From Nitrospirota bacterium (GTDB lineage: Bacteria > Nitrospirota > Thermodesulfovibrionia > UBA6902 > DSMQ01), in contig JACRGX010000069.1 in assembly GCA_016212185.1 (NCBI GenBank), forward strand, positions 673-64,672: a stretch of 64,000 bases of DNA, given 5' to 3'. The translations under genes were made by a program, and so were the position numbers. The notes under the pieces were generated by a model. It saw only the letters and a list, made by a program, of their open reading frames with translations. It did no database searches and was not told where the DNA came from. Position 1 is the stretch's first letter. Each line of letters starts with the position of its first letter. Positions 12,957 to 49,062 of the stretch are shown in pieces.

Positions 12957-13020
12957 AAGGTAAATTATACCTCATTAGACATTTCTTTTAAGTCGTCATT
13001 GCCTGAAAATACCCCTCTTT

Positions 13021-13102
13021 GACAAAGAGGGGCGAGGGGAGATTTTATGAATAAGTTATTTGTTTTTAGAATCCCCCTTTACCCCCCTTTTACAAAGGGG
13101 GG
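13021..13102. repeat. Pair of G/C-tract palindromes
   Basis: cccctctttgacaaagagggg (13021-13041) and ccccccttttacaaagggggg (13082-13102). Same family as 33251-33268 and the 47-bp palindrome at 34966-35012. Confidence 0.8.
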
Positions 13103-13257
13103 AGAGAAAATTTCATTCTCCTTTATGCAATCAAGGCTGTAAAAACAGCTTAATTTTTTGTTTGACAATACAAAGGGTTTGGTCAATAATTAGAGCGGTA
13201 AAAGTTTTTTGTGATAAGAAATAAGTTTAAGAAGCAAAAGAATTCTATGCATATATT

Positions 13258-33216: not shown

Positions 33217-33381
33217 AAAAGGTTGAAGGATGAGGGATGAAGGTTGGTTTCCCCTCTAAAAAGAGGGGTACGGGGGTGTGTTGTAAATAAAGACTTGACA
33301 ATAACAGCATACATGCCTTTAAAACTTTAAGAAATTTGCGAAAACTCTCTGTGCTTTTGGTACAGGGTTACCTTAATTTTC

Positions 33382-33487
33382 GTCATTCCGTCCCGATACA
33401 TCGGGAATGCGGAATCCAGACGTCGTCCTCATGAAAATGGGGAACTAGAATTTTATAATCCTGGATTCCCGCCTACGCGGGAATGAC
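33382..33487. repeat. Nested palindromic element, GTCATTCC family, copy 5
   Basis: gtcattccgtcccgatacatcgggaatgcggaatccag...cctggattcccgcctacgcgggaatgac. Confidence 0.8.
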
Positions 33488-33533
33488 AGCTATAGGAATT
33501 GAAGAATTTTTTCCGGACACTACTAATATAAAC

Positions 33534-33883: not shown

Positions 33884-35299
33884 TCATGCGCTTATATCCA
33901 TTTCCCCTATCAAAAGGCTTGGGGAGCCGATGTTGCCGTAGAATCTGAGGTCGCTTCCAACTTCTTCTACTTTTTTAAACAATTCAAGGATATTGCCTGA
34001 AATAAGCGCCTCTTTTACCGGATACACTGCCGAGCCGTTTTCAATCCAGAGTCCTGAGATGCCTATTGAAAAATCACCTGAAATCGGATTTGCAGTATGC
34101 ACGCCCATTGCATCAAGAACGAGGAGACCTTTTGATAGCGACTTTATTAAAGGGTTTGAGGGTTCAAAGGTTCGGGGATTCGAGTGAAAAATTACTTGAC
34201 CCCTTAAATCCTTGAATCCTTGAATCCTAACTTTTTTGTACGGTTCTATATACAAATTAGTCACATCCACGCCGGGCAGGCTTTTAAAACTTCCCCTTAC
34301 GGCATTTCCGGTTGATGCGACGCCGTCTTTTTTTGCGGTATAGGTATTATGAATAAAGGCGGTGAGCCTGCCTTCGGAGATAAGGGTCTTTTTTGAGCCG
34401 GGCATGCCTTCATCATCAACAGGCTTAGTGCCGATTCCCCACGGCATAAGGGCATTGTCAATCACATTGATGAGAGGGCTTATGATTTGCTCTCCGATTT
34501 TGCCTGCAAGAAAAGACCTTTTTTTCTGCACGGCGTCTGCGGATAAGGATGCGCTTAAAATGCCGAGAAAGTTAAATGCAGTTGATGAATCAAGTATAAC
34601 AGGCGCCTTGACAGGTGAAATCTTCCTTGCGCCTAAAAAGCTTATTGCCATTTTTGACGCATTTGCGCCGGTTGATGTGAAATCTATATCACTCAGTCTT
34701 CTGCTGACTGCAAAATCCCCGCCGAGCTGATTGTCCTGCCCGTCGCTTGCCAGCGCCAGAATATGGGCTGTTGCAGCACTTGTTTTGTATGAAATGTTTA
34801 TGCCTTTGGAATTATATATTGCAGTGGTGGAAACGCTGAAAATCGCCATTGCGTTTCTTACCTTTTTTATCCTCTTATCAAAATTTACAGCGCCTTCTTC
34901 CAGAATAAAAGCCTTTTTTATGGCATCTTCTTCGCTGATGTTTTCAATTTCTTTGTCCAGCACTAAAATCCCCCCCATCCCCCCTTTGTCAAAGGGGGGA
35001 TGGGGGGGATTTGGAATTTCATTATATTGGTCTGCCTCTGTCCACAAAGTCCCTTCAACTGCCTTTTCCACCGCCTGCCTGAGTTCTTCGGGCTTTGTTA
35101 TATATGAAAAACCGAGTTTCCTGTTTTTTAAAACCCTAACCGCAATGCCGCAGTCATTGGCGGCCTCAAGCGCCTCAACAGCTTTATACTTGACCTCAAC
35201 AGACAGTCTTTTGGAGGTTTTTATAAAAACCTCGGCTGCGTCGCAGCCGCTTTTTAGGGCTTGTTCAACTGCATCAGAAGCTAATAATCCGGTGTCCAT
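33884..35299 (-). CDS. pmbA: TldD/PmbA-family metalloprotease
   Basis: N-terminal DAAEVFIKTSKRLSVEV...GIAVRVL and C-terminal SGDFSIGISGLWIENG. Carries two in-frame repeat insertions (34151-34228, 34966-35012). Confidence 0.85.
   Translation of the reverse strand: MDTGLLASDAVEQALKSGCDAAEVFIKTSKRLSVEVKYKAVEALEAANDCGIAVRVLKNRKLGFSYITKPEELRQAVEKAVEGTLWTEADQYNEIPNPPHPPFDKGGMGGILVLDKEIENISEEDAIKKAFILEEGAVNFDKRIKKVRNAMAIFSVSTTAIYNSKGINISYKTSAATAHILALASDGQDNQLGGDFAVSRRLSDIDFTSTGANASKMAISFLGARKISPVKAPVILDSSTAFNFLGILSASLSADAVQKKRSFLAGKIGEQIISPLINVIDNALMPWGIGTKPVDDEGMPGSKKTLISEGRLTAFIHNTYTAKKDGVASTGNAVRGSFKSLPGVDVTNLYIEPYKKVRIQGFKDLRGQVIFHSNPRTFEPSNPLIKSLSKGLLVLDAMGVHTANPISGDFSIGISGLWIENGSAVYPVKEALISGNILELFKKVEEVGSDLRFYGNIGSPSLLIGEMDISA
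34966..35012. repeat. 47-bp perfect palindrome inside the pmbA CDS
   Basis: aaatC7atC6tttg-t-caaaG6atG7attt, i.e. 23-bp arms around one central base. Read in frame as PNPPHPPFDKGGMGGI. Confidence 0.9.
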
Positions 35300-35363: not shown

Positions 35364-35404
35364 TATGTAATGGATTACATAATAAATATGTAATCCATTA
35401 CATA
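35364..35404. promoter_or_regulatory. Candidate enhancer/operator: 18-bp inverted repeat with a 5-bp spacer
   Basis: tatgtaatggattacata-ataaa-tatgtaatccattacata. Each half is itself near-palindromic. It lies 53-108 bp upstream of the -24/-12 promoter. Confidence 0.45.
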
Positions 35405-47541: not shown

Positions 47542-48970
<1,429 letters not shown>

Positions 48971-49062
48971 AAAAAACAATAGCAAAAAGCTTTTGGAGCA
49001 TTACACTGAGAAATGAGAAGTGATAACTAAGCACTAAGAACTGAGAAGTGTCATTTAATTTC

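Follow-up and report, generated by a model that had tools for sequence, protein, structure and literature searches.

What is a long and perfect palindrome doing in the middle of an apparently ordinary bacterial gene? The question is raised by positions 34966-35012 of the DNA studied here, a stretch of 64,000 nucleotides (nt) from a Nitrospirota bacterium (GenBank assembly GCA_016212185.1, contig JACRGX010000069.1), which we call the window. The gene encodes a PmbA-type protein of the TldD/PmbA metalloprotease family. A preliminary description of the window had taken the palindrome for an insertion in this gene, and had read its perfection as a sign of recent insertion or of active maintenance. 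It overlooked that the palindrome belongs to a repeat family which is spread over the whole genome and lies mostly within genes. Our analysis of that family indicates that the palindrome is very probably, in identity and in behaviour, a copy of a dispersed and coding-tolerant selfish hairpin resembling the Rickettsia palindromic elements (RPEs).

The palindrome has the sequence AAATCCCCCCCATCCCCCCTTTG-T-CAAAGGGGGGATGGGGGGGATTT. Its two arms of 23 nt are 100% complementary around a single central base, as had been claimed, and the first pair beyond them (A34965/G35013) is mismatched. We found 0 matches to the core pattern across 100 dinucleotide-preserving shuffles of the window, and the palindrome ranks within the top six perfect palindromes by length in this genome (2.33 Mb, 43% G+C). 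The folding energies, whose calculation had been proposed for the RNA, showed a very stable hairpin for the RNA of the coding strand (−47 kcal/mol, z = −4.8) and a stable fold for the single-stranded DNA (−28.2 kcal/mol, z = −7.0); in both cases no shuffle was as good. The Rfam scan of the palindrome gave sub-threshold matches to generic hairpins only, and the terminator scan made no call there and found no terminator-like tail.

An initial scan of the genome for shapes of the type C-run...TTT-loop-AAA...G-run yielded dozens of look-alikes. The family consensus, derived from 21 clean copies, is AAAAT-C6-n3-C6-TTTGnCAAA-G6-n3-G6-ATTTT, with a unit of about 48 nt; we refer to it below as the C/G element. 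Conservation of the copies stops at AAT/ATT, and the ends are A- and T-rich in this genome. A profile built from 21 seed copies detected 57 loci in the genome, 29 of them strong (>38 bits), and the score of the window copy was near the top (Table 1). About 50 nt, including the spacers, the loop and the A/T ends, are identical between the GlnE gene (C58:15638) and a membrane-protein gene (C59:18185). We had considered that a 45-nt module made wholly of triplets was intrinsic to the family; this was rejected, because 44 nt separate AAT from ATT in the dominant variant of this genome, whose spacers are of 3 and 2 nt, and only the 48-nt total is divisible by three.

The strong copies lie almost entirely in genes. 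Stop-to-stop open reading frames (ORFs) of at least 150 amino acids (aa) contain 28 of the 29 (97%), against 82% of random 50-nt windows. A Pfam scan of ten host ORFs showed that all ten were real genes, encoding GlnE, a GT1 glycosyltransferase, a 2-oxoacid:ferredoxin oxidoreductase (two copies in the gene), uracil-DNA glycosylase (UDG), a radical SAM enzyme, DUF4416, a histidine phosphatase, BioA, phosphatidylserine decarboxylase (Psd) and TruB; in nine of these the element interrupts a Pfam domain or falls between domains. Further hosts were named by eye from their translation, namely PurL, PriA, RibD, MoeA, FabG, a copper ATPase, a secretin, NagZ, an SNF2 helicase and a paralogous family of membrane/TPR proteins of about 700 aa. 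The in-ORF copies here read [N/I]PPxPP[F/L]xKGGxGG[F/I], and the third frame (PLCQRG) was used by none of the in-ORF copies of this genome.

The membrane proteins of about 700 aa are worth a separate remark. They have C-terminal TPR repeats, are 40-65% mutually identical, and are encoded at C59:15052-19378, C69:15821-17677, C12:455-2500 and C33:1254-3260 and on C74, C92 and C27. Each paralogue carries one or two C/G elements together with the repeat-derived segments LPTGQAG/ACLPDRQA, SLFTVHCSLFT and SEQLAVSNKLTA.

The design of the element may explain why it is tolerated in genes. Its C-runs and G-runs flank a TTT...AAA core. As a result, two of the three frames on each strand encode Pro-Pro...Lys-Gly-Gly and usually contain no stop. 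We suppose that this short, non-autonomous, hairpin-forming repeat of about 48 nt has spread through the genome; it is present in many other bacterial phyla as well. A 48-nt copy landing in a surface loop would add 16 flexible residues and leave the protein unbroken. The peptide would thus be made and tolerated, and the visible copies would be the survivors of selection in a few insertion-tolerant loops. In PmbA the copy occupies the linker of the N-terminal and central domains, with the mRNA carrying a very stable hairpin in mid-gene.

We then explored how far the element extends beyond this genome. A strict 39-nt pattern, C6-N3-C6-TTT-N3-AAA-G6-N3-G6, matched at least 120 contigs. The matches listed, to which this and the next paragraph refer, include Nitrospirota, Nitrospinota, Thermodesulfobacteriota, methanotrophic and sulfur-oxidising Gamma- and Betaproteobacteria, Chloroflexota (Dehalococcoidia), Methylomirabilota, an anammox planctomycete, Calditrichota (Caldithrix) and an Asgard archaeal metagenome-assembled genome (MAG), as well as six viral contigs. 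At the viral loci (L128-L133) the element is in frame in ORFs that resemble, by eye, portal proteins, a T7-lysozyme-like amidase and a Mu-like protein. In the contig binned as Promethearchaeota, which belongs to the Asgard MAG, it is in frame in what by eye is a P-type ATPase (L026:5025-5063).

The phases of the 93 strict-pattern copies in long ORFs were distributed as 54 : 9 : 30, whereas about 35 : 25 : 33 would be expected after correction for stops (chi-square, p = 3.5e-5); the counts include some orthologous and hence non-independent copies and some truncated loci. Such a bias would point to copies that are translated and sifted by selection. The orientation of the copies is mostly fixed because flipping would bring in stops: 29 of the 54 phase-0 copies would acquire a stop codon if flipped. 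That orientation might be chosen for hydrophilicity was rejected, as the counts (11 vs 14) showed no effect. At the loop, Asp was favoured over Val by 7 to 1 (p = 0.035), which is suggestive only.

The host gene in the window was then examined. Its ORF matches the three PmbA_TldD domains of Pfam, PF01523 (1.1e-12), PF19290 (1.5e-11) and PF19289 (1.8e-72). The palindrome corresponds to residues ~96-111 of PmbA, NPPHPPFDKGGMGGI, read as (I)PNPPHPPFDKGGMGGI(L), and is in the stretch that separates domain 1 (aa 22-82) from domain 2 (aa 117-220). The claim of an insertion in an otherwise ordinary metalloprotease gene is therefore upheld: the segment is between domains, away from the conserved residues of the family, and is absent in most orthologues. 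The preliminary description had named two outcomes that would speak against it, an alignment of the segment to conserved TldD/PmbA residues and a pseudogene accompanied by an intact paralogue. The position between domains disposes of the one. As to the other, the gene is intact and the genome encodes no PmbA besides it; a search gave one further match only, a TldD-like paralogue with 27% identity on another contig. Since there is no second PmbA, the host gene is not a decayed duplicate.

In the AlphaFold model of PmbA, residues 87-112 form a coil with a predicted local distance difference test (pLDDT) score of about 42-51; the model is moderate overall (mean pLDDT 61.8) with good N-terminal domains, and PmbA was the only host modelled. 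The PmbA gene stays open and is presumably functional, and the element looks harmless to it. The predicted tryptic peptides at the element are GGMGGILVLDK and an upstream one ending in ...YNEIPNPPHPPFDK.

PmbA holds a second insert, in a loop of domain 3, which is unrelated to the C/G element (Table 1). This loop has about 50 aa in the window PmbA and 18 in E. coli PmbA, and in the AlphaFold model it is a coil with pLDDT <50. The octamer repeat of which it is made folds weakly (RNA minimum free energy −21 kcal/mol, z = −1.35; 17 of 200 shuffles at least as good).

The history of the linker was explored in an alignment of 30 PmbA orthologues, with a comparison of DNA for three close relatives whose genes are 87-92% identical in nucleotides. 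In most of the 30 the linker is short (IPxxxxxxxVLVLD) and has no element. Among the close relatives, L002 carries the palindrome at the same site with 46 of 47 bases identical, the sole change being the unpaired centre base (GAC vs GTC). In L003 the copy has decayed and encloses another, partial element. L001, here identical to the same-genus genome G001, has a 33-nt filler of a heptamer-like CAGTGTC type between the same flanks, GAAATCCC...AGTGCTGGA. At about 60% identity, P0025 and P0030 have NPPxPPFxKGGxGGI at the same linker, and degenerate forms occur in P0011, P0012 and P0029. A tree made from the remainder of the PmbA protein implies at least two independent origins of the element at the linker. 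A 471-aa ORF on G001:C77 that matched the element peptide was discarded, as it is not PmbA.

These comparisons bear on the perfection of the palindrome. The gene of L002 has 89% nucleotide identity to that of the window, and both have the same palindrome at the same site, so the insertion is older than the split of the two lineages (11% nucleotide divergence). Hence the idea of a recent insertion does not hold. The window copy is perfect because its two 3-nt spacers are CAT and ATG, which are complementary, and for no other reason. Sister copies often have non-complementary spacers, such as TCA/ATG, and in most copies these give an internal loop within the hairpin. Active maintenance also had to be dropped, since the conservation relative to L002 is not significant. 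The two genes differ in clusters, and no more than one difference is present in 24.6% of all 47-nt windows; from the local flanks about 4 differences would be expected in the palindrome and 1 was seen (Poisson, p ~0.08). Hairpin-templated correction may occur, and there is no need for active maintenance to explain the conservation. The perfection of the window palindrome is incidental, and its insertion is not recent.

The domain-3 loop shows a similar variety of fillers. The octamer repeat of the GGATTCAAGG type is found in the window and L003, C/G elements in L002, P0003 and P0030, and a palindrome read as 'SLVIARDEVPKQS...ARNDR' in many other orthologues. The loop is empty in L001 and P0004, and elsewhere it holds other fillers.

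Turnover was also evident at the level of genomes. Among 41 related genomes, the exact 21-nt core has 0 to 51 copies per genome, and the reversed-pattern control gave 0. We traced 13 copies of G001 to orthologous sites here and found about 6 in common and about 7 absent. The shared sites are in BioA, the histidine phosphatase, TruB, GT1, MoeA and the oxidoreductase, and at them the spacers or the loop differ or an arm has been lost. Where the copy of G001 is absent here, the site is often filled by heptamer arrays. The PurL and BioA loops contain, in relatives, heptamer arrays, another palindrome or nothing; the heptamer units are GTTAAGA, CAGAACA, GTCAGAA and CTCGTCA, and these loops are hypervariable across the family. 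In PurL the C/G element stands at different positions within the loop in two genomes, and in BioA it directly adjoins an array of the CATCCTT type.

A separate observation concerns BioA of G001 (G001:C22:4159-4958, L140), whose two halves match in different frames around the element with one stop. This stretch is partly N, and a real frameshift at the C/G runs cannot be told there from masking or assembly error.

Table 1. Features of the window and of the compared genomes. Positions without a contig name are those of the window; G000 is the genome of the window.
Feature	Position	Strand	Evidence and remarks
PmbA (TldE)-type protein of the TldD/PmbA family, 471 aa, intact, single copy	33884..35299	-	PF01523, PF19290, PF19289; closest solved chain E. 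coli PmbA 5NJ5_B; orthologues in Nitrospirota/Thermodesulfovibrionia MAGs
Copy of the 48-nt (16-codon) C6/G6 four-block element	34965..35012	.	Minus-strand translation NPPHPPFDKGGMGGIL; sequence, folds, family profile 60.4 bits; replaces the 33-nt filler of L001/G001
Octamer-hairpin repeat, GGATTCAAGG family and inverted counterparts	34152..34227	-	In frame, ~RIQGFKDLRGQVIFHSNPRTFEPSNP; domain-3 loop of PmbA, hot spot 2; unrelated to the C/G element
Degenerate intergenic half-copy, core and right outer arm	13011..13047	.	nhmmer score 26.5
Degenerate intergenic half-copy, left outer arm and core	13067..13106	.	nhmmer score 36.5
Three-block cousin, C4TC-loop-GAG4-TAC-G5	33251..33275	.	Downstream of Band_7 gene; C-block, loop, G-block, 3 nt, G-block
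PurL loop	G000 C44:14845-14897 vs L134-L139		C/G element here, tandem heptamer arrays in relatives
BioA loop	G000 C103:9955-10003 vs L140-L144		C/G element here, tandem heptamer arrays in relatives
Y1_Tnp genes	C53:42239-42565, C42:160-486, C9:22035-22361, C1:731-1060, C95, C43		Loci L004-L007

We also looked for traces of a transposition mechanism in 168 copies. Direct repeats in the flanks were no commoner than in shuffled pairings of left and right flanks, so that no target-site duplication was detected, and flank complementarity beyond AAT/ATT was at chance. A few copies had seemed to have a palindrome extending into the variable flanks; this was dropped, because the position-wise complementarity was at chance. 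Pairs of separated arms were not seen among the copies.

The genome encodes six long-form Y1_Tnp (IS200/RAYT-like) proteins of about 230-330 aa, several with an apparent C-terminal helix-turn-helix tail. Their genes are flanked by inverted GGGGTCAGGYCT / AGRCCTGACCCC repeats and none is on a contig bearing the C/G element; together with these repeats they look like a separate REP/RAYT-like system. Over the 41 genomes, the numbers of elements and Y1 genes were weakly correlated (Spearman's correlation, rho = 0.47, confounded by phylogeny), and the 7 genomes without a Y1 gene all had at most 2 element copies (Fisher, p = 0.02, confounded by phylogeny). All of the element-rich relatives have at least one Y1_Tnp gene, and G010 has 17 Y1 genes and no element. 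We rejected a direct link to RAYT, since the Y1_Tnp genes are flanked by a different repeat, none is near any copy, and the genome-level correlation is weak. An enzyme acting in trans would move the element and leave no duplication; a hairpin-recognising enzyme of the HUH/Y1 type is our best guess, and a doubtful one.

The C/G element shares features with several known systems, of which the RPEs are the closest in behaviour and the TMECO/PIT/BoxC repeats the closest in DNA architecture. In-frame coding palindromes have been treated in the literature as a curiosity of Rickettsia. As with the RPEs, we see a dispersed palindromic repeat that is in frame in many unrelated genes, read as an extra peptide and variable in presence between related genomes. 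RPE-1 to RPE-10 (Ogata et al. 2000, 2002; summarised in PMC10969869) are about 100-150 bp long and confined to Rickettsia and close relatives. They are described as in frame in unrelated housekeeping genes at fold-compatible positions, variably present between related genomes, about half intragenic, and encoding a family-specific peptide in one frame (PMC10969869). In contrast, the C/G element has 48 nt, gives Pro/Gly in two of three frames, occurs in many phyla and in phages, and has all but one of its strong copies here within genes; RPEs entered this comparison by description only.

The TMECO, PIT and BoxC sequences are G/C-rich repeats of the intrastrand-triplex type, found in E. coli as well as in other bacteria (Hoyne et al. 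2000; Holder et al. 2015, PMC4666352). TMECO has the consensus CCCTCNCCC-N3-6-GGGNGAGGG-N3-GGGNGAGGG, made of three blocks of 9 nt, and in E. coli K-12 all its copies are intergenic (PMC4666352). The C/G element shows the same order of C-block, loop, G-block, 3-nt spacer and G-block, with conserved blocks and variable loops, and it has in common with these repeats the occasional inverted pairs, the patchy copy number between close relatives, the link to local sequence variability and the lack of an associated transposase. The architecture is present on both strands as C6-TTTGnCAAA-G6-n3-G6, with a first loop of 9 nt vs 1-6 nt in ITxF (PMC4666352). Unlike TMECO, the element consists of four pure blocks of 6 nt each about TTTGnCAAA, forms a full palindrome and is intragenic, and its likeness to a triplex is one of sequence only.

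The repetitive extragenic palindromes (REPs) and REPINs that accompany RAYT genes are similar in being short hairpin repeats in tens of copies with no target-site duplication, and the genome does have Y1_Tnp genes. REPs are extragenic and flank their own RAYT gene. The strong copies of the C/G element are 97% intragenic, and the Y1 genes are flanked by GGGGTCAGGYCT-type repeats instead. The MITEs, or miniature inverted-repeat transposable elements, are likewise small non-autonomous repeats able to sit in ORFs. They have terminal inverted repeats matching a parent insertion sequence (IS) and target-site duplications, and are usually >100 bp and mostly intergenic. By contrast, neither a target-site duplication nor terminal inverted repeats of a parent IS could be detected in the 168 copies of the C/G element. 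ERIC, Correia, Nezha and other MITEs are known to make in-frame fusions (PMC10969869). Our literature searches for the C6/G6 family found no description of it in the papers searched, and returned only papers on RPE, MITE, TMECO and REPIN.

The family could also be explained in other ways. The element may be a functional nucleic-acid signal under selection and not selfish DNA, in the form of a cruciform, a G.G:C intrastrand triplex of the TMECO/PIT type or an mRNA hairpin, which could have a role in recombination, in the pausing of replication, in the binding of nucleoid proteins, in RNA processing or in a translational pause between domains. Across phyla the C6/G6 blocks and the TTT/AAA core keep their sequence, in contrast to the freely varying spacers and loop, and the block order C-loop-G-n3-G is that of purine-motif triplex repeats which fold in vitro (PMC4666352). 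The palindrome is perfect in two lineages 11% apart, and the PmbA copy stands exactly at a domain boundary. We nevertheless consider such a signal unlikely, because the copy number is so unstable among close relatives (0 to 51), about half of the copies differ within the genus, and the positions have no common logic except that they are tolerant loops; moreover, no Rfam family exceeded the threshold, there is no terminator-like tail, and the orthologous conservation is statistically ordinary. It is still less probable that the unit of selection is the peptide, a PPxPP[F/L]xKGGxGG hinge or loop module spread by recombination for its benefit as a flexible linker or docking motif. The strong frame bias, with the third frame containing Cys, Trp, Gln and Arg nearly absent, and the location of copies in linkers and loops would be expected of such a module. 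However, two frames giving different peptides (NPPxPPF... and IPPxPPL...) are used, the DNA palindrome is retained at synonymous positions, intergenic and degenerate copies exist, the hosts are as unrelated as enzymes, membrane proteins and phage portal and amidase genes, and orthologues are equally well off with other fillers or none. These points make selection on the peptide highly improbable.

A local origin would dispense with mobility altogether: slippage or template switching in a C-rich linker coding for Pro would have made the palindrome, and the look-alikes would be convergent, as are the heptamer arrays. The linkers of orthologues do already have NPP, SPP or PP, the tandem heptamer arrays in the same loops clearly grow in place, and neither a target-site duplication nor a mobilising gene was found. 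What local slippage leaves unexplained is the four-block order with TTT...AAA in many phyla and phages, and it is opposed also by the identical or near-identical stretches of 48-50 nt in unrelated genes, such as those of GlnE and the membrane protein mentioned above; we judge it very unlikely. An artefact of assembly or sequencing, or a dead gene, might be suspected because the genome is a metagenome-assembled draft of 103 contigs and C7/G7 runs are error-prone in sequencing. This is scarcely credible, as L002, an independent assembly from groundwater, shows this palindrome in the same frame, and the full-length ORF retains the three domains and the conserved residues and has no second PmbA beside it in the genome.

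Several points weigh against the interpretation of the palindrome as a copy of a selfish hairpin. The PmbA site is a replacement, with 48 nt in the window lineage vs 33 nt in the congener, and shows no clean insertion. No transposase, parent IS or target-site duplication was found for the C/G element, so the argument for mobility comes from its distribution alone. The frame statistics are affected by the non-independent copies noted above, and that PmbA is made and active is presumed from its sequence. The same PmbA, PurL and BioA loops hold other repeat types in relatives; thus random transposition in its simple form, with subsequent selection, may be only part of the explanation. The repeated use of the same loops by several repeat families may reflect targeting or, if insertions are tolerated at few sites, extreme survivorship.

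With these points in mind, we put forward a wider proposal as a tentative one, possible but short of probable. The C6/G6 hairpin would be a cross-phylum and phage-borne selfish DNA adapted to coding regions, preferring genes and, whichever strand is read, translatable in two of three frames as a Pro/Gly loop. Together with the heptamer arrays and the octamer hairpins, it would time and again remodel one small set of hypervariable loops in the housekeeping proteins of subsurface bacteria, and would form a general, so far unrecognised source of loop insertions. It would be moved by an enzyme that makes no target duplication, and the reuse of loops would be due to targeting and not to survivorship alone.

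The behaviour of coding palindromes is seen here in a free-living Nitrospirota genome, in an element three times smaller whose design explains its tolerance. If this is general, selfish DNA and not adaptive linkers would make up a measurable share of the short insertions of Pro/Gly loops in bacterial proteins, and alignment, annotation and structure prediction would be affected. The elements would also mark insertion-tolerant loops, which would be useful for protein engineering. The mechanistic puzzle would then be the movement of a 48-nt hairpin that has neither a linked transposase nor a target-site duplication.

Some minor features of the window remain to be described. Shorter intergenic relatives of the palindrome had been reported at two places. 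The region 13021-13102 does contain members of the family, two degenerate half-copies that are both in the intergenic gap 12957-13244. The site at 33251 is instead a three-block cousin, and resembles intergenic CCCCCTTAnnAAAGGGGG-nnn-GGGGGTTGT copies elsewhere in the genome.

Another hairpin repeat family, GTCATTCC...GGAATCCAG / CTGGATTCC...GGAATGAC, is present in the window at 33383-33490 and 48903-48971, and is also in frame ('...RRNDK') in a 2-oxoacid oxidoreductase gene on contig C3. Finally, TATGTAATGGATTACATA / TATGTAATCCATTACATA at 35364-35404 form a perfect 18-nt inverted repeat whose arms are separated by 5 nt. It sits between the PmbA start and a divergent prepilin-like gene cluster, and could be an operator.

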